64,000 nt of DNA from Nitrosopumilaceae archaeon (GTDB lineage: Archaea; Thermoproteota; Nitrososphaeria; Nitrososphaerales; Nitrosopumilaceae): NCBI GenBank assembly GCA_965207375.1, contig CBDBMG010000003.1:384001-448000 (forward strand). Reading direction: 5' to 3'. Made by a program: the position numbers and the translations under genes. The stretch's first letter is position 1. Each line of letters starts with the position of its first letter. The notes beneath the pieces are model-generated. The model saw only the letters and a program-made list of their open reading frames with translations. It made no database searches and was not told the origin of the DNA. Below are positions 3,251-38,826 of this stretch, in pieces.

Positions 3251-3910
3251 GTGGAGTGTGGCTTCCAGCCAGCTAGAGGTTTTATCATACATTGGCAAGG
3301 GGTCTGACACTCGAGAATTTTTGCATGAGGTTTAGTTTACCAACAGTTCATGATATATTATAACTATTATATTATAAACTCTTGACTTTACCAAATTAGG
3401 CTGTAAATATCACGTGATTATAAATATACGGAGAAAAACAAAAATTTACATTCAGCAGTTGTGTAAGAGATTTGGAGCATTGGGCAGCGAATAGGTATTA
3501 ACTTGATAGGAACGAGAACAATACATAATTAATTTTTATGCCACACACAAAATCATACATAAATAAAACTCACACTCGACGACGATGGCTTAAGCTTCGT
3601 GTAGCGAGTCTTTTGATCTTGTATCTTTGCTACTGACGAAGCTACAAAAGCAAAGGACGCACCAATTCCACCACAGCCATAAGGGCGTCTAAAATTATAT
3701 GTCTAGGCGCTAATGGATGTTATGCGGCTTGCGCGTTTAATCTCGGCGTACATGGACTCGCATGGACCAGAAAACAGCGTTTTACCACGGTAGAAAACTG
3801 ATCTGGAAAGAATTTTCCGAGCTGTTTGTATGATGGAAGGTTTAAAGGTACTATAACTATCCGACACTACTTAAGATATGTGTTTGTTTGGCTGTTATTT
3901 AACTTTCATG

Positions 3911-4766
3911 GGTAGCCACTAATTTGCGGACTGGACTGGACCTGCGGACTGGTCCATCTTGCTGTGAAAACACTAATTTGCGGACCGGACTGGACCAGTG
4001 GACCAGGCAATCAATGGCACGTGGCCATGGGCTATAACAAACGATCTACTACCACTGATACCAACGAACCTGTGCAGTGTCCCCACACGCGCTTGGGCGA
4101 CTCTGAAAATGATACATGGGGCGAATTGTTGTAGCTATAATACTCATGTATGCAGAACTGACTACTAAAAGCCACCGTGACTCCGGCCATTAGAAAAAAA
4201 CATTGTCAATCCTGGTCTAGCACAGAAAGGGCTTACTTATATAGCCTCTGGATATATGCAAGGAGTAGTGTATAACTGACTATATGAAGTTATATATAAA
4301 CTGCATGATTTGATCAACAATGCAAATAAAGGTCACAGCAGAGATAGTCGATCGGCTACTGCTGATGACCGGAGGTCTAGATCTACACATTCAGTGTGCT
4401 GCCAGCACTTACATTGTACACACTTGAACTACAAAATGATAAGAACAAACAATCAGTTAAAACTGCTGTGTTGTTTTAGCACACAAATTAGTCATATTTG
4501 GTACCCTCTTTCTGTTTTTCTCTGTGACATGGTACCAAATATGACTCATCTTTTGTTAAAACAACACAGCAGTTTTAACAGTGGCCAGTAGAGTAAATCA
4601 GCTTACTTTGACAAGGAGCGTTTAGCGCCGTGTACGGCAGTCCGTGTTTTTCGCCAATACTAGTCCGCTAATTAGTCAAACTTGCCTAAACTGCGGACTG
4701 GACTGCGTACAATGCGTTAAAGTATTGGTCCACTGGTCCAGTCCAGTCCGCAAATTAGCGACTACC
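3911..4766. mobile_element. Non-autonomous Mutator(MULE)-like MITE
   Basis: TIRs ggtagccactaatttgcggactggactggacc / ggtccagtccagtccgcaaattagcgactacc; 9-bp TSD actttcatg (3902-3910, 4767-4775). Confidence 0.85.
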
Positions 4767-4878
4767 ACTTTCATGGGAGTTCAGGACAATAGTGCGTATG
4801 CGTTTGACGTCACGCGATTATTCACGTGATAAAGTAGCCATTTTAAAGAGGCAAAAGGAGATAAACAGTTTCGTGAGG

Positions 4879-6726
4879 ATGGTGAATTCATGTTGTGTAA
4901 TTGGATGTTCAAACCGGAAAACTAAGGGAACCAAATTAACTTTCCACTGTATACCAAAGGTATAGTAGTTTTCGTTATTTGAGGACGATTTTTAGATACT
5001 TCTTTTTCACACATTACCTTTTTCTGAACGCTATGCTGAGCGTTGCAATGGAATCTCATTACATAGCGGTGGAAGTTATTTATAATGTTAGGAGTATCAA
5101 ATTACAAGCCTTTGGTTGTGAGAACACGTGTTTGTTTGTACTTGATATAAACATTACATGGTTTTGATACAAGAAAACATGTAACAATACAAAACTTGTA
5201 GTTTGCATAAAACCACACATTAAAAAATGTTTCATTATAGGTAATTAAAGACAAAGGAAAGAAGCTGGAACAATTATCTACCAGAAGAAGGGCAGAGTGG
5301 CTTTCAAAAATTAATAGGAAGAATTGGAGTCCTAGTCCTGGTAGTCGTGTATGTTCAGTCTATTTTGCACATGGACAGCCAGCAGATTTGCTAGATGATA
5401 CCAATCCAGACTGGATACCAAGTGTTTTGATGGGTTATGCTACCAAGGAAGGAGATTTTGATTGTTACCATCGTTGCAAGAAAAGAATGGCACACTCTGA
5501 TGATGATGATAACTCTGTGAAAAGTGTTCGAGTAGATAGTAGTGCTGTAAATAATGTTCCTTTAGACAGTAGCATTCCTGTAGGTAGCAGTACTAGTGTT
5601 CCAGTAGAAAGCAGTATTACAGAAAGTTTAGATGTACCTGAACAAGCTAGCACTTTACAGTTGGAGGAAATTGCCACTGCTGAAAGCACTTTGATGGATT
5701 GTGAGGAAAGTGATTTGTATGTAGAATACCTAGGTCTAGAAGATGAACTTGCCCATCTTAGACTGGATAATCAAAAGTTACGAGATGAGAATATTAAACT
5801 GAGAAGTCAAGTAATTGTTTTTACACCACATTTATTTGAAAATGACAAGAATATCCTACAATTTTACACTGCTTTACCAAATTGAACAATACTTAAGGCT
5901 GTTTTTGATTTGGTACTGCCTTCACTTCCCAAGATGCCGAATAGTAAACTTTCCCCTTTTGAAATTATTGTAATGTTTTTTATGAGAATTAGATTGAATC
6001 TGGTGGAAGAAGATATTGGATATCGTTTTGGTGTACATCAAAGCACAGTGTCGAGGAATTTTTATAAAGTGTTGGATGTAATGGATGTTAAATTATCTCA
6101 TCTAATCAAGTGGCCAGAACGTCAAATTCTGCGAGAAACTTTGCCTATGAGGTTTAGACGTTTTTTCAAAAAGTGCTGTGTCATCATAGATTGTACCGAA
6201 GTGTTTGTGGAACGTCCATCAGATTTAATGGCTCGAGCACAAACCTGGAGTAATTATAAACATCACAACACTGTCAAGTTTCTTTTAGGAATCACCCCAC
6301 AAGGAACAATTTCTTACATCTCTCGATCATCGGGTTGCTGGTGGTCGAATGTCTGATAAACAAATTGTTGAAAGTTCTGACCTTATCAGCAAGTTGCTTC
6401 CTGGAGATGTGGTGATAGCAGACAGGGGGTTTACATGTGATGATTATGCCCACATGGTACTTGCTGAAATAAAAATCCCACCATTTACCAAGGGGAAGAA
6501 ACAACTTGAAAAGATTGAATTAGATTGGAGTAGGGAACTGTCTATGGTACGGATACATGTAGAACGCGTTATAGGTGCACTAAAACAGAAATACACAATA
6601 TTACAAAGTGTTCTGCCTATCACAGTAATTGCTGATAAAGATGATGGAGCTGCCACTATTGACAAAATAGTTAGAGTATGCTGTGCTTTGGTAAATTTAT
6701 CACCATCCGTTGTACCACAGGATTGA
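4879..6726 (+). pseudogene. THAP + HTH + DDE_Tnp_4 (Harbinger-like) transposase, disrupted
   Basis: Exon 4879-4959 MVNSCCVIGCSNRK..FHCIPK, GT-AG intron 4960-5240, then W..CSVYF..PDWIPS (THAP, zinc His changed to Tyr). Motifs IIDCTEVFVERP, YKHHNTVKFLLGITPQG, ADRGF, RIHVERVIG are present. Premature TGA at 5883-5885 and a frameshift near 6330. Confidence 0.9.
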
Positions 6727-6760
6727 GTTAAGATGTTAATTATATTACTATATAATATTA

Positions 6761-9513
6761 TTAGTTCTTATACTTTTTCAGTTTTCTGCATGACGGACAG
6801 TACCATTTTCCTACTGGAGCAGAATGCATCTTTAAACAGTCAAAGTGAAACCACTTAATTTTGCATGTCTTGTGATCACACATGATCATCTTTCCATGGC
6901 TAGGTTCTCCACAGTAACACCATGCTGCCTCTGGGTCTTCCTCACTAGCTTCACTAGCTGTACTTTTACTAGCTGCAGCTTGTTCTAAGTTAGGGATCTG
7001 TACAATACCATCTTCATTAGCAATAGGTTTTCTAGTCAGCCATTTGCCAACTATCTCGGGTAGAACAGAGTATATAAAGAAATTTTCCACTTGGCCCATT
7101 AAATTTTCATAAAAACAACGATCTAGATGGATTCGCTCTATGATCACCTCCTCCTTACTCCACACAACAAAATCTCCATGCTTCATATTGTATACATTCA
7201 GTTGTGCTTGCACCTGATAATAATAGCTGTGCTCCCTAGATAGTCTCCATTTCCCTACAGCAATGCACAATAATAATTATTTATAAAACTATTGTTATTA
7301 ATGTTAAAGAGCATACCTTTTTCATCTTTTTCTAGACAAAATTTTTTATCACTCTCCTCTGGAAGCCTCTCTCTGAAACAATATGGACACTTAACTTCAA
7401 TAGTTCCTTTACCACAACAATCACACATAATAATTGCATCAGGTGATGCCCCAATGTATGGTCTCTCTTGGCTAATAAATAGTCCAGTGTCTTTAATGGA
7501 TACATTGCTGTGTGCGGACATCTTTTCTTTATATGTTTTCAAAGCATCTTTTTCATGCAAACAGCCCCACCTATATACAATATATCATAACATTAATACA
7601 TTAATACAATAATACATTCTTTCATACATGGTACTTTCAGTAGTGAATGCATAAGCCTGAGGGTAACAAATTCGCTTTATCAAACTCGTTGAAGGCATAC
7701 ACGGATTTGTTCTGGCTACTGCTTTGAAATTGGAAGCAATAATTCTTCCTTCATGATGGACCTTCCACAGCTTACATTTAGCCTGCTTCCTTGTAGACTG
7801 CTCCAACAGCATTACTTGCTCCAAGGATATCTGAAAAGTATTTTTAAAAATATTAAAAGATTTAGCAAAATATACAACCTTCAGGTTTCTTGCAATCTCC
7901 TCACATCTGCTAAGAAGGGATAAATAATCTAATTGCAGAGCATCCGGGTCGTACAGTTGAGAAACTGGCTGTGGGAGTGATTCGTTCATACCCATGGGAA
8001 TAAACTGCTTTGAATAAGGAGGTGTTATCTTCAATATGGCAGGTTTAACATCTGATGAATTTAAACAGTCATAAAATTTGACAAGTTCATCTTCTGTGGG
8101 AACATCAATGCAATGTTGTTCTTTAGACTGCTTAACTGCTTTTGATGTAAACACTATATCTTCGATGTTGGCAGGTTCTACCTACAAAACAAACCAAAAT
8201 TTATAAGGACTGATTGATTTTTGTCATACATTTCTGGCTGAAGGTAACCAGCCACAGCTTTGTGATGTGCAGGAAGTTGTCCCAGATTGTTCTTGGTACT
8301 GAGCTGCTCTTATTAAACAAGATATTACTGCAGTAATGTGTGAACATGCTTCTCCCAATCTACATAATATTTAAATCAGTCTTAGTCAGTTAAGTACAAC
8401 CCCACTTACCCTGCCATGCAGGTACAGTGTGCACCAAGAACATTCCCAGATTGATGACAAACCACCCAGGGTATTAGTGGAGTAGCTGATAGACTTTGGG
8501 AATGTTTAACCTCCATAAGGTACATATTATCAATTCAAATCATAACTTATGGACTCACTTTTCCCATCACAAGCCAATGTTTATCATTCTGGTGGGTAAA
8601 AATATAGCATCTGAGGTTATGAATCCATCCAGCTTTGACAAAACTGTCTGACCGTAGCATACCTTTCCAAGCCTATATGTGTAGAGTAAAGCAGAATCTA
8701 TTACTGTATAAGTGGTACATTTGATGGTGATTTTAATTTGGCAGTTTGGTGGATTTGTCTTAAATCGCCAAACTAAAGTCACCGCCAATACTATTTTTTA
8801 GATGGCACTGTGGAAGTATCTTATGGCGATCCTTGGCCAATCCGCCAAACTAAATGTTCGCCAATCTGTGTTTATTATCTAATCGCCAAACTTAATGTCC
8901 GCCAAATGTACCACTTATACGGGGTATGTGCTTAACTGACCCAGTAAGAAGGATATTAATATCTTCCTTATAGCTGTTGTGAGCCTGAAGCAATTGTGGT
9001 GATGTTAAAATGTTGTACTCGTGTACTTGTTTACAACAACATGTTATTATATACAAGCTTACAACATTCCTATTCCATGGCTGGGGATACCCTGCATATC
9101 TTTACTTTAATTAATCATTGGTATAAGCCAACAGATAAATTGAGATAATATATGTGCATGGAATAGCTATACATAATATTATAGCCTAAGTTTAAACAAT
9201 GTCGGACCTAAAACAGCCCAGTATTCAATCACCGGGCTGCCCAAACTATATGCTATACTTTCGAAGTTATAAGCATGCATTGTAGATGAAACCAAACCTT
9301 CATTTCTTCCTTAGTATATACACTGGGGGTAGATATCATGTACAAAAACATGTCACTCCATGCAATTTTGGGGACTGAAGGAGGTTCTTCAACCCATAAA
9401 TCGTTAGGTATCGCGTAGGGATCATCCTTCAGACCAACTTTGGCAAGTTTTTGCTTATACCTTGCTTTTGCCTCAGCAAACAAATCGTCAAAATACTCTG
9501 AAGTTCGCTCCAT
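6761..9513 (-). CDS. Spliced ISL2EU second ORF: SWIM zinc finger, YqaJ-like exonuclease, C-terminal PHD finger
   Basis: Short GT-AG exons give ..TKEEMK|AWKGML..AGWI..|VKHSQS..AHCTCMAG|LGEACSH (SWIM); GRIIASNF, GASPD..IEVKCPY, YYYQVQAQL (YqaJ); WCYC..MIMCD..C..WFHFDC..WYCPSC (PHD). Start could also be ATG 9549. Confidence 0.85.
8704..8924. mobile_element. TA-flanked MITE (C(C/T)GTA termini) in an intron of the YqaJ gene
   Basis: TIR ctgtataagtggtacattt / aaatgtaccacttatacgg; internal cgccaaa/tttggc repeats; TA on both sides. Confidence 0.75.
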
Positions 9514-29557: not shown

Positions 29558-32424
29558 TATCCCTTAATATACATAGAATATAATAGGAGCACAATTGGCT
29601 CAAGCATATTATTGTAGTCAGCTTGTGAAATAATACGTATTAGTCCTTGTGCATCTAAACAAATAGATTTAGTAAAGATTAATTACAACTGAAAACTCAA
29701 AATAATACCGTATATGTAGCTATACTATAATTTCTACTATGCTGGATTTTTGTTTGTATCCACTATAGTCTTTATAGCTGCGTATATAGGTTACATAGTT
29801 GGCTAGGCATTTAATAATTTACGTTTGTATTTAAATGGTATAGCATATGTATTACTGTGCATACGTAGCTATGTGCAGGAGTGATTTGTCTGATAGTCAT
29901 GGCCATGTACACATGTGTTAGAGATTAGGCCATGCACAGGTGACTGCATGGCTAAAGGTAATGCTGACATCAGGCAAATCGTGAATTACTGTATGCATGC
30001 ACATGTTGTACAATTATGTCATGTAATACTTTCAAATTATTATAATGTCACAATACCTGTAATGGTTATATATACGTACGTACATAAGTTAATAAATGCA
30101 TATTTTACTTAATTAATGTATATACATGTACTCAACTATCCTATTGTTCATCTACTATAACATAAAAGCAAATTATTGCATTTCAATAGGAAGTTGTTTG
30201 AACAATGGGAACTTGTAGCACAGATTGGATGTTGCACTGGCCCACTGTTGCATGTGCAACAGTGGGCCATTGAAAAGTTTTAGCACACAATTGATTTGTT
30301 TGGAAGTTATAGCACATGCAACTATAGTAGCTAAGTGCTACATACATAAGATAAGTTTATATCTACATAGTTACTTAGCTATGTATGTAGCATAACTGAA
30401 ACACTTAATCTGAGCCTTAATTAGGAGTTACTGTTAATAAGCACATCTTTGCAAATTCTATTCTAAGTTTCTTTTACTCTTTTGTCTTCATAAATGGATG
30501 TTCTCACAAGCATATATCAGTCACTAAACTTAGCATAAACTCACAGTATGATTATCATGGTTGTTGTGATTCAATCAATACTTGTGCATAATGTGGTTAA
30601 TGTTAACAGTTTAAAGCATGTTATTTGTAGCAATCTTACAGACTAAAATCCTAGAGGATAATAACAGATGTGTATGAATAAAATATCAATTGTTAATAAT
30701 ATGATATCATACGTAATTCAAAGCTACCCAGTCAAGCGTATTTAACTGTCAAATTTGTTAATGCCGTAATTAATACATAGTATTCTGGAAGTCCACAGAG
30801 TAAATTGTCTGATTTCAAAGTATACCAACCTTTCCAAGAAATCTCTACAAGTTTAATGTATCAATGAGAAGCACCAAGGTATAATTGTAGTCAGCTCGCA
30901 TAATTGCATAGCCCTTGGGCATCTATACAAAATGATTCAGTAGCACTGAAAACTCATATAGCTAAAGCTCATAGCTTTATTGTAGCTATAGCTATAATTT
31001 TGGATTTGTATATCTACTGTAGTCATTTAATTGTATCCAATAGTCCACTACTCTTCTCTATGTATTTTGTATCCACTACCATTAGCTAGCTTGAAAAGGA
31101 TTTCCTTTACCAATGAAAACACTCTCCTCTGATTAAATGTGCTAGTTATGCTACATACATATAGCTATAATACGTAATCATAATTATTATTATTATGTAC
31201 GTAGCTATAGCTAGCACAACTTTCTAATGGCAAACTTTCCAATGCATGGCCTTACGTAGCTACATATGATTTCATTCTGTGCTTATAGCTACATATGTAT
31301 TGAAGCTATAGGTATAATAATTATAGTTAACTGTGTTCCAAGTTATATTATTCATATGTATGGGAAGGAGTACGTAATTTGTGTGCATATGTTAGAGACA
31401 AGGGCTATAGGTGGCTGATAGTGTATGTACGTAGGCGACAACTTATAGCCTGATGAAATGACTCTTTTTATCACTTGCTTATGGCATTTACAGGTATGTA
31501 TGGCTGTGGTAGGATTTGACATACATAATGTACGATGTAGCTATCCCAGACTAAGTGCTACATTATAAAAGTACATTTTGCTACTGAGATAGTTGAATGT
31601 ACGGTAATATATATAATTATCAGTAAGTTCATGCAGTATAGCTATTAATAAGGTGTCAGAAATTTCAAAATTGAACTATAGTATTGATCTCACAAGACAC
31701 ATGTACACTTTACACATAAACTTAATTACGTACATAGGTTAATAATTATACTGTACTACAGTAGCTATAAAACAGGGAATATATATATAGCTACTACAAA
31801 TTACTTATGATTATTATAGCAACTAAAACAAAACAAAGAAAGTGAGAATTAACAACGTAGACTTATTACTACTAGCTACTAGCTATATAAATACTATTAT
31901 ATTATTGTTATGTTGTTGGCGACATCACTAAGTAACTGTTTCAATAATAATTATTGATGAATCTAATACAAAATGGTGACTTCTTATAAGTTTTGGGTTA
32001 GATAACTACACTGTTAGAAATGGGTAGCTAGTTGTGATAACTACGAAGGAGTTATCCTTTGAGGAGAATTTTTGGTCTGAAAAACTCCTTTAGTACGTAG
32101 CTAGCTACATATATTTAATAGTGTATGACATCAAGTTGAGCAGTTTGTGGCTACATAGCTACCAAAGTGCTAGGTATAATTTGAATAATAAAACTTTCAA
32201 AGTGTAGATAGCTACGTATATTCAGTATCTATAATATTATTATAACGTAGCTAGCTAGTTATAGCTATAATAATAGGTAAAAGTTGATTTTTAATTTAAT
32301 TAATTTAATCAAAACATGTACAACTAAACCACAAATACATATAGCTAGTTATTATAGCTATACATTATAGCTAGGTAACTAAATAACTAGGTCTAACAAA
32401 TCAGTTATCAATGGGCGGTTATAC

Positions 32425-33132
32425 TTAGGCGGATTGACAAAAATTTTCTACCGCGACGGCAGGACGAGAGTAGCGTACGGAAGGTGAACAAGCATACTTC
32501 TGATTTGGCTTAAACATTTCAACCAAAACTTTGTCAGCAATCTCCCATAATGGACGACTAACTTTAGCATGAAGACAAAAGGAATTGGTAAATAATCCTC
32601 CGACAGCTCCCTCCCTCTTATCGTCCCAAGCAGGAATCTCGCTGTTAGCTCCACAGAAAAAGGCCACGGATTTTTCCAAGCGGGTATCCAACCTCCACGT
32701 GTTTATCATTCCCCCAGAATGACAAGCGTCGATGATTACGTAAAGGGTTTTTCCCGATGGTAAATATTCGTCAATGTCTTCAGTAAGCTCCTCGTCTTTA
32801 TACCACTCGTTGTAGTCTTCGACAATACACAAGCATTCGGTGTTGTTTCGCTTCATTCAGTTCCACTGATGACCCCCATGACCACAATTGAAATATATGA
32901 GGAATTCCTCCTCGGTCTTGGTGAGAAAATCGATGAAGGTTTCACGATATTCTTTCTTTGTACTGTAAATCTTGCGGGAAGGATGTTTCGAAAGTTCCTC
33001 CGTGTTCACCAGCACATTTGAGATTCTAAATCCATTGCTATCACAGAGTTTAACCATGCTTTTAATGTCAGGACGGTTATCAATGAAGGGGTAGCATTTT
33101 GCACCAGTGATCAACGCAGCGGTTGCAGACAT
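32425..33132 (-). CDS. Intronless metacaspase-like peptidase C14 with one in-frame TGA (32857-32859); pseudogene, recoded or split
   Basis: Two abutting same-frame ORFs give about 235 codons with the catalytic His motif LIYFNCGHGG, the catalytic Cys motif LYVIIDACHSGGM and C-terminal GGLFTNSF. The only lesion seen is TGA immediately followed by ATG. Confidence 0.8.
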
Positions 33133-33429
33133 GACTAGATACAATATACGTATGGTAGCTTAATCTATAGTTCTATGACTACAGTGAAACAACTGTACTG
33201 TAGATATAGCTATTTATATAGCTTTATTAGCTCTACCGGCGAAAACCACAATTATAGCTACCTAGCTATATATAGCTATATAGCTACGCGTTTTTGTATA
33301 ATGAAATCGCATTTCCGCTTTTTATTGCAGCCCAAAAACTATAAAAAAGGCAGAAACTTATGTGCTGGTATATCAACATCCAGCGTGTTCAAAGCAGTTA
33401 TTTAGCTATACAGCTGAAATTCTTTCGAA
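33133..33429. promoter_or_regulatory. Putative bidirectional promoter
   Basis: Minus-strand TATATAAATA at 33220-33211 and plus-strand TATAAAAA at 33340-33347, each about 80-90 bp upstream of the respective ATG. Confidence 0.45.
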
Positions 33430-33549
33430 ATGTCTACTACTCTCGCTAATGCAAAGAACCTTGCTATGTCCATATTGGACGTCGATGGTGACCACAGGAT
33501 ATCTCGCAGTGATTTTGAGAAGGCTATGAATAGAAATGATGCCAAATAG
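33430..33549 (+). CDS. 39-aa single EF-hand microprotein (below ORF-track cutoff)
   Basis: MSTTLANAKNLAMSILDVDGDHRISRSDFEKAMNRNDAK*. The helix-loop-helix loop D-V-D-G-D-H-R-I-S-R-S-D-F matches EF-hand positions 1, 3, 5, 8, 9, 12 and 13. Position 6 is His rather than Gly. Confidence 0.55.
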   Translation: MSTTLANAKNLAMSILDVDGDHRISRSDFEKAMNRNDAK

Positions 33550-34053
33550 TAAAGCTAATAGTTGAATGTCCTATAAAAACAAAACATTAAGGTTTTTATC
33601 ATATTATAGTTTTTAAAGAATTAACTTACCAGGTGACGAAGGGCCCATTCGTGTGGCTTCAATTGTTATAACCAAACATCACTATATACATTCAATTAAT
33701 CCATCCTAGCTCTCCATGCATTTACCTATCTACAAACCTTACAATCGCTTACCACGATTCATAGTGGCTTCCTCGGGCGGGCTTCCTGGTTGACCAAAAA
33801 CAACATTTGGCTTTTTGATAGCCAACCACTTCCTTCCTTGAATAGAGCTGAGATGCGGAAGCCCAATCTACACGATTCAACATGCCGTGCCATTCAGCAC
33901 AGTGTATACACGCGATCGTTGTCCAACGTCACGGGCACGTGCTTGCACATTCCATACCGCCCCTTTACTGGATGTGCAAAACAATTGGCACTAATTAGAG
34001 TAGATTAATAATCGAGTGTAACTCGTGAATTATAGGGAGTTTTAAGAAATCCT

Positions 34054-36070
34054 ACATTTAAAATGAATCTCGTTATGTACAGATTTGATCACATCACGTG
34101 ATACGCATATTATCACGTACAAGTTAAACTTTGGTTGATTTTAGTGTACCGCAGGTGAACGTGGATTACCACACGTGTCGAAGGTTACTGCTACTTGAAG
34201 CCGATTTCGTTGTTGCGTAGGGGTGCATGGTTTTAACTGGCAGGAACAGTTGGTAGATTTATGACGTCCATTCCAGCACTGAGTTAAGTTATGCATCATT
34301 ATTATAATGTATGATTGATTTATCTATGTTCAGCTAAATATCATTTATTCTGTTCATAAGACTAAACCTAAGCCATATATAGCTTGGCCTGAGTGGTTCC
34401 CCCAGTCTTGTATTAGATTATGTATGCTAATTGAAGCCGATAATAATACTGTAGATGATTGCTATCCAATATTAATCTGTTATTTGTTATAGATGGTATC
34501 CAGTTGCAAGTCAGGTTTCTAACACTTATGGAGGCAATTATTAGACTCCAGTTGATATTGCGATTATGGAGTGATGCCGTGTGTATAATATTGAGCTATA
34601 TATGAATATAGTAGGCTTGTTGTTATGTATATGTTGTTCAACTTGCAGTCTATAACTGAGATAATCGTTCACATAATTACTGAGTCATCAACGTAGGTGT
34701 AGAATAATATACTATATGTAATGGACTCTTCAATGCCGGTATTGTCTTGCACTAATTTTTAGTCTGCCTCAGTGACACTTTCAACTTAGGCAAGTAAACT
34801 GTCATTGTTATTAAAAAATCCCTAGCATACTATTTATGCCCTAGCTTAAAAACTGCCTATTGATCAGCTGTAAACTGCGTTTACAGTTTCTACTGAAGAG
34901 AAATTAATGATAAATGACATAGGGTCCGGCATAATCACCAAGTTGTCTAGCAAGATAGTTTATACAAATGTAAGAGCCTTTTCCCACTATTGATGTTGCA
35001 ATTTATACTTCATTCTTCCGAGCAAAACATCCATGAGCAGTCAAAAGTTGATTGGTTGAACTGGACATTGGAAAAGAATAATATTACGTACATCTCCAGA
35101 AATCTGAAACCATGATTAGCCTCTCAATCATCACTCTTTTTATTATTATTATTGTAAAACCTCATAAATTTCTAGATAGCTACATATGTGATTGTAAGAG
35201 TCATTTAAATTGATAATGGTTGCAGTTTCAGGAGGTAACTTGTTCCAGAGGCTAATGGAGTTTGGGAAGAAACTATACTTGTATTGGTCAGTATGCATAG
35301 CGGGTTGTACAAATTTCATGGTATGTCCTCTTGTGATACGGGGAGCTGGGATGATATAGTCCAGTAAATTGAGTTCAACAAGACCATGGATGATCTTATA
35401 TAACATTATGAGGCATAGTTCTCTGTGTTGGGCTTTGACAGATCGCCACGTGCACTGTAGGAAAGTGAGCATAGCTGATACACTGCTAGTTCTGTGATGA
35501 TCTGACATTATAAACCGAGCTGCTCATTTTTGGATAGCTTCTAATTTATTGATATGATAGTTAGTGTGTGCACTCTATGTATAATAAATTATGTTATGCA
35601 TGCAAATATCAATCAGGCCATGTCATTCCAGTAATACAGGTAGTCCAAATGTGTGATGGTACATCAGCACTGGCATGCATCTTAACCTGCAAAAGAAATA
35701 AATATGATTATATTTACTTAATATACACACCCTGGTAATTCCTGCCAAGGCTGCCTAATACGAGACTGGAGTTACACATAGCTTAGTGTCATGTACAGAA
35801 TAAATATTTAGCTGAACATAAATCAATTACTCTGTTTAATGCATAACTTAACTGTTAAAGATGTTCTGGAATGGGCGTCATAAATCTACCAACTGTTCCT
35901 GCCAGTTAAAACCGCCCCTACGCAACAACGAAAGTAGCAGTACCTTCGACACGGGTGATAATCCACGTTCACCTGCGGTACACTAAATCAACCAAAGTTT
36001 AACTTGTACTTGATAATATGCGTATCACGTGATGTGATCAAGTCTGTACATAACGAGATTCTTTAAAATG
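34054..36070. repeat. About 300-bp inverted repeat arms (34054-34368 / 35781-36070)
   Basis: aatctcgttatgtacagatttgatcacatcacgtgatacgc... is reverse-complemented at 36061 and leftwards with high similarity. Confidence 0.9.
35140..35560 (-). mobile_element. 3' fragment of a second non-LTR retrotransposon
   Basis: AARFIMSDHHRTSSVSAML..MLYKIIHGLV..RITRGH..YKYSFFPNSISLWNKLP is the typical C-terminus of RT ORF2, with an (AAT)n tail. Confidence 0.85.
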
Positions 36071-36220: not shown

Positions 36221-36429
36221 TAACGCCCTTTCGTGACGAAATTCTAACCGCAATTTTTGTTTTTCTTAGTACTTGGTTTATAATATAATATATATCTTAG
36301 TACTAGATAAGATTAAACAACTAGCTAGCTAAATAGTGAAAGTGTAAAAACAACTTACGTAATTAAATAATTCGTTTCGCGGCACGTGACTATATTGTGA
36401 GGAAGACGTAATTTGTTTCTCTGAGAGAT

Positions 36430-38826
36430 ATGGCAATGGATTTGATGGAAGATGCGGTGAAGATTGGCCAAGAGGAGTTGCACAAGCGGCTCAGGCAGTT
36501 AATGAAGCTGGACAAAGACGAGAAATACTTCACATCACTTCTGTTCCGTCGAATGTTTGAAGAAGTAAAAAAGTGTAAGAACTGCGCCTTTCATGGCATA
36601 ATGAAAAAGCCTGCTCGCACTTATGAACGAAATTCTTACGGATCTGGCCTGGAACTTTATTTATCAAGCAAGGGAGTGGTTGGCAAACATATAATCCAGT
36701 GTCCCTTGTGCTCTGAAAAATTTGGTGCCTGGTCGTTTGAGAAACAAGACCTTCCGCCGGAGTCGCACAAGATATACGGACTAGAGGTACGCTATTATAC
36801 TCATAGGATGATGCAGAGTGCGTTAGTTTTTGATGTGATGGATCTCGTGAAAGTTGAAGAGATGGTGGACCCAGCGAAGAGGAAAGATAATTATGAGAAA
36901 GTAGGGGAGTTTATGTTAAAGAATGCGCGCAGGGTGAGTGAAGAATGGTGCTCCCCAGATAATGCTGAAGTGAGACAGAGTATGCTGTTTTGGTTATACG
37001 ACCAAACCATCTTCTCAGTGGAACAAAAGGCTGCCCACCATACTTTCTCAGACGAGAGCCGGGAACGTTACGACAGGACTGTGGAATCTTTTCTTCACAA
37101 TCTCGATAAGACAGAATCTCTACTGCGGCTGTTGAAAGAAACACTTTTTGATCATCCAACACATCCAGTATTTATGGTCTGGCTTTGTATTGCAATGACC
37201 CAAGTTGAGTTATTTTCAACCCTCATAAAGTTCTATGACCCAAAAATATTCATGAATTCGGATGACAAAGAATTTATAAATGTGCGACATCAATACAAAT
37301 CTCTTAATATGCCTAAAGAGATCAAGAAAATACCGATTGTATTAATGTTAATTGAGATGCCACGATTTTTTCATTATACTGATTTTGTTCACCTCAGGGC
37401 AGGGAAGAAGTCATATCCCACTAAAGAATTGGAGGTGGACAGGATTATGAGGAGTTGTTTGTCTAAAGAAGGTTTGAAAATGGCAATTGGTGGAGCGCAA
37501 GGAAAGAAAGTATTGAAGTCTGTTTTACAGCAAAGCCGTTTAGTCAAAAAGAGAATGTTTAACTACAGAATTTTTGACTGCTTGGATTATGTAGAATATT
37601 GTGAAGACTTTGAGAAAGAATTTGTTATAAAATTTCACAAGTTATCGATGGCAGATCAGTATAAACTGTGCCTGCGTGCCATCAAGATAGGTGAGAACTT
37701 TTCCAATGTGAAGTGTGCCACAGAACTGCCAAACCCTATTGTTCTTAAGGACTTATTTCAGGAGTCTTTCAATAATAATGAAGAAGTTATAGATGATGAC
37801 TTAGTCCCCTTCAAGGATCAACCAAAGAAGCATAGAGACATGAAAGAAACACTTGATATGCTTACTAAAAAGTCACAGTCAATTGTATTAGGACCTCCCT
37901 TGGAGGAAGAGTTGGAAATGCATTGTAATGGTAGTATGCATGTGGGTTATGATGCAGACTTGCCAAAACCAAAGGTGGAATCTAGTTCTGAAAGTAGCGA
38001 TAAAGATGAACCTATTCCAAAATTAGGTTCCACATTACCATTGGATGAGATTATGGATCGTGTAAGGGAGACACTAGCAGAACGTAACCTTTCCATTCCC
38101 GAGCAGTACATGCCGCATCCTATAACACTTCCTGCTGGATTAGTTCCGTCTGTCTCCAACGGTGGTAATGTCCAAGCCTTGATGCTGCCGGTACCACCTG
38201 CTGGATCCAAAGATGCTGAAGATTTAGCAGAGACAATGTCGAAATGTCTTCCTATGTACAGTCAGGAATCAACAGATTGGGCTAATTCTGTCATGAAGAG
38301 TCGTAATGTTTATACCATACACGTTCCGAGTACCGGTACAAGAAATCCTGATGGTACCTTACAAGTGACTTCCAAGATGTTTTATCATGGCAAGGAGACG
38401 CTCAGTACCACGCTGATGAACTTAGGCAACCACGCACACGTTGCTCAAATGGCCGCTGCTGCTACAAGCCAGCCCAGTGATGACACAAGCCATCCTAAAC
38501 AGGATAGCACAAATGATACGAAAACTCCAAAAGATGATACAAGTGATCTGAAAAAAGAGGCAAGCACTTCAAATAAAGATGTGACTAAAATTCCTACTGA
38601 AGATGACATTGCTACTGACACAGTGAAGGTAGCAGGGAAGGAGAACCATAAACAGGACATTGTGAAGAGAAAAGGGAAGATACCTCGCTCTTGTAGTCAC
38701 TGCAGTTCTACTCCAGAGAAGTTGCTCACATGTAAAGCATGTCGTTCAGTTGCATACTGCAGCAGTAATTGTCAGCGTGCTCATTGGAAACTCCACAAGA
38801 AAGATTGCCAACAACTTCAAGAATGA
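36430..38826 (+). CDS. Intronless 798-aa protein with C-terminal MYND zinc finger
   Basis: Uninterrupted ORF. CSHC..LLTCKACRSVAYCSSNCQRAHWKLHKKDC is a canonical zf-MYND. There is an N-terminal CKNC..CPLC pair; the rest is unrecognised. Confidence 0.88.
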   Translation: MAMDLMEDAVKIGQEELHKRLRQLMKLDKDEKYFTSLLFRRMFEEVKKCKNCAFHGIMKKPARTYERNSYGSGLELYLSSKGVVGKHIIQCPLCSEKFGAWSFEKQDLPPESHKIYGLEVRYYTHRMMQSALVFDVMDLVKVEEMVDPAKRKDNYEKVGEFMLKNARRVSEEWCSPDNAEVRQSMLFWLYDQTIFSVEQKAAHHTFSDESRERYDRTVESFLHNLDKTESLLRLLKETLFDHPTHPVFMVWLCIAMTQVELFSTLIKFYDPKIFMNSDDKEFINVRHQYKSLNMPKEIKKIPIVLMLIEMPRFFHYTDFVHLRAGKKSYPTKELEVDRIMRSCLSKEGLKMAIGGAQGKKVLKSVLQQSRLVKKRMFNYRIFDCLDYVEYCEDFEKEFVIKFHKLSMADQYKLCLRAIKIGENFSNVKCATELPNPIVLKDLFQESFNNNEEVIDDDLVPFKDQPKKHRDMKETLDMLTKKSQSIVLGPPLEEELEMHCNGSMHVGYDADLPKPKVESSSESSDKDEPIPKLGSTLPLDEIMDRVRETLAERNLSIPEQYMPHPITLPAGLVPSVSNGGNVQALMLPVPPAGSKDAEDLAETMSKCLPMYSQESTDWANSVMKSRNVYTIHVPSTGTRNPDGTLQVTSKMFYHGKETLSTTLMNLGNHAHVAQMAAAATSQPSDDTSHPKQDSTNDTKTPKDDTSDLKKEASTSNKDVTKIPTEDDIATDTVKVAGKENHKQDIVKRKGKIPRSCSHCSSTPEKLLTCKACRSVAYCSSNCQRAHWKLHKKDCQQLQE

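Follow-up and report, generated by a model that had tools for sequence, protein, structure and literature searches.

A decayed copy of a putative sponge metacaspase-like protease and EF-hand gene pair in DNA binned with an archaeal genome

The window analyzed here is a 64,000-nucleotide stretch (contig CBDBMG010000003.1, positions 384001-448000) of a genome record assigned to a Nitrosopumilaceae archaeon, GCA_965207375.1; the contig is designated C4 in this four-contig assembly (C1-C4). The locus in question is a pair of genes arranged head to head, one for a metacaspase-like cysteine protease of the Peptidase_C14 family and the other represented by an open reading frame (ORF) of 39 amino acids (aa) with one EF-hand loop. 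We assign a probability of about 0.8 to the reading that this locus is a decayed copy of a sponge gene pair that exists in multiple copies, and that in the intact copies of the pair the EF-hand protein would be the Ca2+ sensor of the protease, either in trans or as a C-terminally fused domain. In the window, the protease copy has a TGG-to-TGA nonsense change in codon 92, upstream of the catalytic Cys, together with other private changes, and the EF-hand gene breaks off after codon 37, where it meets repeated DNA. Comparison with recorded proteins and contigs uncovered what appears to be a conserved pairing in sponge-like genomes, in which a metacaspase-like protease accompanies a full-size EF-hand protein and is occasionally fused to it.

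The interrupted protease gene and the truncated EF-hand gene

The features that define the locus are the following, in window coordinates.

32425-33132, minus strand: metacaspase-like Peptidase_C14 frame, 235 codons plus terminal stop, with one interruption
32857-32859, minus strand: in-frame TGA at codon 92 (tca on the plus strand), TGG (Trp) in close relatives
32878-32880, minus strand: codon of the catalytic His85, in GHG, from the sequence and a metacaspase alignment
32722-32724, minus strand: codon of the catalytic Cys137, in DACHSGG, from the sequence and metacaspase alignments
33430-33549, plus strand: 39-aa ORF, N-terminal relic of an EF-hand gene of ~190 aa, with homology over 33430-33543
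33478-33513, plus strand: EF1 loop of the 39-aa ORF, an EF-hand-type loop
33541-33800, no strand: beginning of high-copy repeat DNA, in place of the remainder of the EF-hand gene

The protease frame contains GHGG at residues 84-87 and DACHSGG at residues 135-141. Read through its stop, it matches PF00656 (Peptidase_C14) over residues 6-206 with 27.2 bits (cut-off 21.4; E 3.8e-6). An earlier note on this DNA had described an intact C14 protease with these motifs; the motifs and the family are borne out, the intact ORF is not. In the ORF listing, the TGA divides the frame into ORFs of 91 and 143 aa, the second of which starts at an ATG in codon 93, directly after the TGA. The stop falls between the catalytic His and Cys, and the 91-aa product would be without Cys137. 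Peptidase C14 requires an uninterrupted coding frame from His to Cys, which the window copy does not have; judged by its sequence, this copy cannot yield one chain with both His85 and Cys137.

The window protease is 93-94% identical to the intact 235-aa copies. Trp92-Val93 is found in all ten close intact copies (each of 235 aa after removal of two gene-caller extensions), and the window has stop-Met at these positions. In alignment A1, the TGA column is occupied by Trp in five of ten family homologues. At sites invariant in the ten close copies, the window carries six private changes (E31D, Y82N, W92stop, V93M, G192S, and R215C), compared with 0-4 in each other copy. An assembly error as the source of the TGA is excluded, since the TGA form occurs in contigs of two studies, represented by sequencing runs X1 and X4. 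At position 32857 in X1, C is found at 0 of 221.1 read depth, that is, only the TGA form is present. In X4, C accounts for 18.1 of 33.4, and a window-like contig (depth 15.3) occurs beside a TGG-type contig (depth 18.1). An intron spanning the TGA was also rejected: the sole GT..AG pair around it, identified by eye, would excise 16 nt. Selenocysteine at codon 92 is without support, as no SECIS element was matched at E <= 1 within positions 31000-35000. The window protease copy is read as a pseudogene or null copy.

The 39-aa ORF corresponds to the first 37 codons of a single-exon gene for an EF-hand protein of ~190 aa that resembles sarcoplasmic calcium-binding proteins (SCP). A search for longer proteins was made with a 42-aa reference, the 39-aa ORF plus three upstream codons. 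It gave seven proteins from ten candidates, five of which are EF-hand proteins of 189-197 aa; the recorded protein P0076 (P-numbers denote recorded proteins throughout) has 94% identity across 79% of the query. With tblastn, residues 5-37 of P0076 align to window positions 33445-33543 at 93.9% identity, and residues 38-189 were not found on C2-C4, with two chance-level matches (E 4.0 and 4.7). The last codon and the stop of the ORF lie beyond the end of homology at 33543, in unrelated DNA. At ~33541, the read depth of X1 leaves its level of 210 and reaches 3452-7573, and that of X4 climbs from 19 up to 818-1691. Contigs of unique sequence stop at 33516 (X1) and 33539 (X4), and one X4 contig matches 33541-33619 solely from its own position 72 on. 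The homology ends where the high-copy repeat begins, and therefore repeat DNA replaces the EF-hand gene from ~33541. One X4 contig is near-perfect over 33160-33539 and continues with 28 letters unlike the window. This might mean that the EF-hand gene is truncated in some individuals only, as a polymorphism, or that there is an intact paralogue of very high similarity. The rest of the host contigs (2.1 Mb) contains no paralogue of the protease or of the EF-hand gene.

The ORF and its loop had been recognized in the earlier note as a single-EF-hand microprotein. Both are present, although the match of the ORF to EF-hand_1 (21.1 bits) is below the cut-off of 25.4. The window ORF has 39 codons and one loop, and the full domain of ~185 aa with paired EF-hands is found in its intact relatives. 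These alignments mark the 39-aa ORF as a truncation by-product and not a microprotein gene. A truncated relic of a longer EF-hand gene was among the outcomes named in advance as speaking against the microprotein, and it is the outcome observed: the ORF is the N-terminus of a protein of ~190 aa with three canonical loops, and the partner in intact copies is a full-size SCP-like EF-hand protein rather than a peptide.

Intact copies and the pairing of the two families

A word-indexed search gave 15 protease relatives from 171 candidates, and an exhaustive search gave 62 at E <= 1e-3 among 1.84 billion representatives. Intact proteases are encoded by a single exon and have 233-235 aa, which leaves no space for a prodomain or for a 160-aa type II linker (type I prodomain and type II linker as defined in the excerpted text of PMC3734836). 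In a profile search of solved structures, only metacaspases rose above noise, namely Arabidopsis MC4 (E 6.6e-8), MC9, Trypanosoma brucei MCA2 (TbMCA2), and yeast/Candida MCA1 (Yca1). The AlphaFold2 (AF2) model of P0087, the closest intact copy and not the window product, has a predicted local distance difference test score (pLDDT) of 84.7 and a predicted template modelling score (pTM) of 0.87. It has the caspase-haemoglobinase fold of clan CD, and the ~90 residues after the catalytic Cys are folded in it; residues 146-235 may be a p10 equivalent. Foldseek placed metacaspases at the top of its matches, followed by MALT1, GSU0716 (3bij), and legumain. The His/Cys dyad of Peptidase C14 is present as H85 in GHG and C137 in DACHSGG.

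Residues were mapped by a hidden Markov model alignment to TbMCA2 (4afr_A), in which the excerpted text of PMC4357240 assigns Asp95 and Asp211 to the S1 pocket and Asp173, 189, 190, and 220 to the Ca2+ site. Asp95 falls on invariant D22 and Asp211 on invariant D135; an acidic S1 pocket is thus present, implying a predicted specificity for Arg/Lys. In the Ca2+ site, Asp189 corresponds to invariant D113, Asp190 to a variable position (E114 here), and Asp220 to invariant N144; Asp173 lies within an insert adjacent to E99. The four-Asp allosteric Ca2+ site of metacaspases is incomplete in the sponge protease. The lack of an acidic loop after the catalytic His, as noted previously, is consistent with the metacaspase alignment.

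An intact protease copy ~91% identical to the window is expressed. Two contigs from RNA libraries, of 939 and 805 nt, span exactly 32422-33135 with 65 and 64 differences, respectively, and no gaps. They have TGG GTG at codons 92-93, with C at position 32857 in all of the depth (81.9/81.9 and 40.2/40.2), and their flanks are unlike the window. The intact 235-aa protein P0093, recorded from a 939-nt contig, differs from the window product in 14 residues. No RNA contig covers 33334-33800 in the two RNA runs; these runs hold the ~91% relative, so this is no sign of silence.

A search for related loci with the protease gave none in the genome-contig or metagenome-contig collections, and the ESM Atlas holds only generic 'caspase domain' clusters for it. 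Two distant relatives with 37-38% identity, P0021 (528 aa) and P0024 (419 aa), have N-terminal extensions of 210-295 aa. That of P0024 has weak ricin-type lectin and DUF5648 matches; that of P0021 has no Pfam domain. The protease module thus appears to be joined to different sensor-like domains in distant relatives.

Intact EF-hand proteins have 187-214 aa and are encoded by a single exon; loops EF1, EF3, and EF4 are canonical. The best full-length solved relatives are the Renilla coelenterazine-binding protein 2hps (E 5.4e-20) and the Nereis SCP 1q80/2scp (E 5.2e-18). The sponge EF-hand protein Ilborin was considered as a relative and rejected, being a 577-aa TIM-barrel protein of unrelated architecture. 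The EF-hand partners (P0076-P0136) end in a conserved run of 8-13 Cys, which a proline run or a CaaX-like tetrapeptide accompanies in some of them. SCP-like proteins do not usually have such a Cys-rich tail, and its presence suggests that the partners are heavily lipidated or bind metal.

Contigs in other assemblies were taken as the same where their recorded size in nucleotides agrees. By this comparison, the two families are common to 11 contigs: six in the lineage of the window type (1743586, 1236206, 319918, 138128, 133258, and 4231 nt), four in a lineage with ~75% protease and 54% EF-hand identity (900598, 702836, 50568, and 45970 nt), and one in a lineage with 66% and 51% identity, respectively (3584 nt). 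Several of the shared contigs bear at least two copies of each family. Among the proteins recorded from them are P0007 and P0126 (3584 nt), P0009 and P0100 (4231 nt), and P0001, P0078, and P0096 (138128 nt). In addition, the two domains are fused in single ORFs, three of them full-length (P0016, P0101, and P0102, 430-436 aa) and one partial (P0015). The order in the full-length fusions is protease (residues 1-233), short linker, EF-hand domain, and a CaaX-like end. In P0016, both Pfam families are over their cut-offs, the EF-hand domain with 46-50 bits. As a control, the EF-hand alignment was used in a search that gave 80 + 39 = 119 loci, all of them generic EF-hand matches of 25-53% identity, and a protease relative was found in none of the 119.

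The AF2 model of P0016 has pTM 0.53 with pLDDT <50 in the linker (residues 230-256), and its domain arrangement is not informative. Complex prediction from the protease alignment and the EF-hand alignment (residues 1-170) scored 0.00, which gives no verdict and is evidence neither way. Decayed copies also occur elsewhere (P0078, P0082, P0097, P0100, P0009, P0013, P0014, P0104, and P0106), and suggest a birth-and-death turnover. On the evidence of shared contigs and fusions, the association of the protease and EF-hand families does look real. The functional link proposed in the earlier note gains comparative support from these 11 contigs and four fusions, but its peptide-based version does not survive. 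Full-text literature searches gave no paper in which a metacaspase is paired with, or fused to, an EF-hand protein.

Origin of the window and surroundings of the gene pair

The window is host-type eukaryotic DNA binned with a prokaryote genome, as indicated by several features of the assembly. ORFs of at least 150 aa (stop-to-stop) fill 78% of C1 (2.16 Mb), compared with 11%, 19%, and 15% of C2, C3, and C4, respectively. A run of SRCR exons on C2 gave ten matches, nine of them above the cut-off; no SRCR match was found in 14 control prokaryote genomes. All 40 of 40 RVT_1 matches are on C2-C4, and the protease is absent from 300 other genomes of the prokaryote's family. Parts of the window are contained in 19 public runs from five studies, and both RNA runs among them are labelled 'sponge metagenome'. 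ORF density, SRCR exons, RVT_1 matches on C2-C4, absence of the protease from the prokaryote family, and the sponge-labelled runs together therefore indicate host-type eukaryotic DNA; on the first four of these, a prokaryotic origin of the window was rejected. The host is most likely a sponge. The SRCR matches lie at C2:194000-224000 in short open frames on a single strand, an arrangement that resembles a multi-exon SRCR-repeat gene. As a prokaryote genome, the assembly is rated 99.95% complete and 0.06% contaminated, yet it includes ~2.1 Mb of eukaryotic host-like DNA (C2-C4). Thus, marker-based contamination scores fail to flag ~2.1 Mb of host DNA in a prokaryote genome record.

The remaining features near the gene pair are as follows.

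33133-33429, no strand: divergent spacer of 297 bp with two TATA-like sites and a repeated TAGCTATA-type stretch
33211-33220, minus strand: TATA-like site, 86-88 nt upstream of the protease ATG
33340-33347, plus strand: TATA-like site, 90 nt upstream of the ATG of the 39-aa ORF
34055-36070, no strand: transposon-like block with inverted repeats (34055-34365 and 35783-36070, 82% identical)
35149-35523, minus strand: retroelement ORF-tail fragment, a 124-aa frame between the inverted repeats

The spacer is exactly 297 bp long, in agreement with the earlier note, and a TATA-like box precedes each gene at a similar distance, as claimed there. However, TATAWAWR occurs 142 times in the window compared with 96.9 +/- 12.0 expected from shuffles, which corresponds to ~0.33 sites per strand in 297 bp. 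Because the word is so frequent, the two boxes carry little weight and are weak evidence. The genes are indeed richer in GC (0.435 for the protease and 0.417 for the 39-aa ORF) than the left (0.295) and right (0.384) flanks, but the right flank is not GC-poor against the whole window (0.352).

The TAGCTATA-type stretch at 33226-33279 has a read depth of 1401 compared with ~210 locally, about a 7-fold excess. Short words of this type recur all through the AT-rich intergenic DNA of the window, and contigs join the stretch to a similar one that lies beyond the protease gene, at 32244-32268. The inverted-repeat block at 34055-36070 is probably a retroelement remnant; window positions 35177-35568 are 90.5% identical to C3:686430-686824, which adjoins an RVT_1 match. 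The largest ORF of the window (36412-38826, plus strand, 804 aa) has a C-terminal MYND zinc finger (PF01753, 41.5 bits). Two open frames at 6761-8181 on the minus strand have sub-threshold matches to a PHD finger (22.4 bits) and a viral alkaline exonuclease (19.2 bits).

Alternative explanations, known systems, and significance

Several observations weigh against the interpretation of the locus as a decayed copy of a functionally coupled pair. The adjacency of the two families elsewhere is inferred only from equal contig sizes, in which spacing and orientation are not visible, and the window pair is head to head, while the fusions require same-strand order. No EF-hand partner is among those listed on protease contigs of 138094, 549385, 591409, 8503, 3685, 1845, 1259, and 939 nt, and no protease is among those listed on an EF-hand contig of 73732 nt; the cluster listings are incomplete, and small contigs are possibly too short for both genes. 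The protease frame is fully open except for the single TGA. Over 714 nt, it differs from the transcribed copy by 65 nucleotides but by 14 aa, and a rough estimate of dN/dS for this comparison is ~0.1. Since the divergence is mostly synonymous, the protease family is under constraint and the decay of the window copy is recent; the stop may be read through, or it may represent a segregating null allele. Finally, no RNA run is shown to come from the same individual as the window.

The first of the alternatives is that the window copy is alive, with the TGA read through or recoded, or with the fragments of 91, 143, and 39 aa acting as decoys or regulators of intact paralogues. A single stop in a frame mostly under purifying selection, an ATG immediately after this stop, and the TGA as the sole form in X1 and again in a second study would all suit such a scenario. 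We consider it improbable, given the lack of a SECIS match, TGG in ten of ten close copies, additional private changes at conserved sites, and the absence of a fragment with both catalytic residues. Even less credit can be given to an intact protease co-regulated, through a divergent promoter, with a genuine 39-aa EF-hand microprotein as its trans-acting Ca2+ sensor. The ORF retains its ATG and a complete EF1 loop, and TATA-like sites lie 86-90 nt before both ATGs. But the protease has an in-frame TGA, the ORF aligns to residues 1-37 of 187-214-aa proteins and ends at repeat DNA, its EF-hand_1 match is under the cut-off, and TATA-like words are common in the window, which makes this scenario very hard to sustain.

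Another scenario concerns the intact copies. The two families could be mere neighbours co-duplicated in tandem arrays, the fusions being products of accidental read-through, without functional coupling. Each family has several copies on the contigs that they share, co-duplication alone would maintain their linkage, many copies are decayed, and the window pair and the fusions are not oriented alike. This explanation is rather unlikely, since the linkage is kept at 66-75% protease and 51-54% EF-hand identity to the window type (contigs of 3584, 702836, 900598, 50568, and 45970 nt), and an open fusion frame of 430-436 aa is found in three distinct sequences on three contigs, with 88-99% identity.

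Among known systems, metacaspases (C14B; MC4, MC9, TbMCA2, and Yca1) give the best profile and fold matches to the sponge protease, which shares with them the His/Cys dyad in GHG and DxCHSGG and equivalents of TbMCA2 Asp95/Asp211 (D22/D135). Unlike them, it has only ~233 aa, without a prodomain or a long p20-p10 linker; it has no acidic loop after His, and the Ca-site Asp220 is replaced by an invariant Asn. It also occurs in an animal-like genome and is partnered or fused with an EF-hand domain, whereas metacaspases are placed in plants, fungi, protists, and prokaryotes in the abstracts of PMC9626678 and PMC5756287. The metacaspase-like proteases, or orthocaspases, described in the excerpted text of PMC3734836 as p20-centred and minimal, are likewise short and without a prodomain or recognizable linker, and bacterial GSU0716 (3bij) is among the fold matches of the sponge protease. 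However, the sponge family has ~90 residues after Cys that are folded in the model, and EF-hand pairing is absent from the orthocaspase description in that excerpt. The intact partner is closest, among solved proteins, to the compact four-EF-hand SCP and Renilla coelenterazine-binding protein, which are of similar size (~185 aa); it differs from them by the poly-Cys or CaaX-like tail and by the linkage or fusion to a protease.

In calpain, a cysteine protease of the papain fold carries a penta-EF-hand domain and associates with a small EF-hand subunit. The proposed likeness is one of working analogy, namely a cytosolic cysteine protease that would receive its Ca2+ switch from an EF-hand module, whether in cis or in trans. 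The protease folds are unrelated (clan CA for calpain and clan CD for the sponge protease), as are the EF-hand subfamilies. If the window holds a decayed copy of a sensor-protease pair, as we prefer to think, the EF-hand partner of the intact copies would probably hold the protease at membranes via its lipidated tail and would make up for the partly degenerate intrinsic metacaspase Ca2+ site, so that a Ca2+-gated, calpain-like design would be built on a C14 protease. More tentatively, and as a possibility rather than a probability, sponges may possess a lineage-specific multi-copy Ca2+-switch protease system, in which sensing, and probably membrane anchoring, come from an adjacent or C-terminally fused SCP-like EF-hand protein with a poly-Cys/CaaX-like tail. 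If true, calpain would have an animal counterpart from clan CD, and the birth-and-death turnover of this system would hint at a function in cell death, in immunity, or in reactions between self and non-self.

For the window itself, the result means that the locus is most probably a dead gene pair, for which the microprotein hypothesis is unneeded. A functional coupling would provide (i) an animal example for a protease family usually put outside animals, (ii) a case in which EF-hand gating of a cysteine protease was reached a second time, independently, and (iii) a natural split-versus-fused system for how Ca2+ control becomes attached to a protease.

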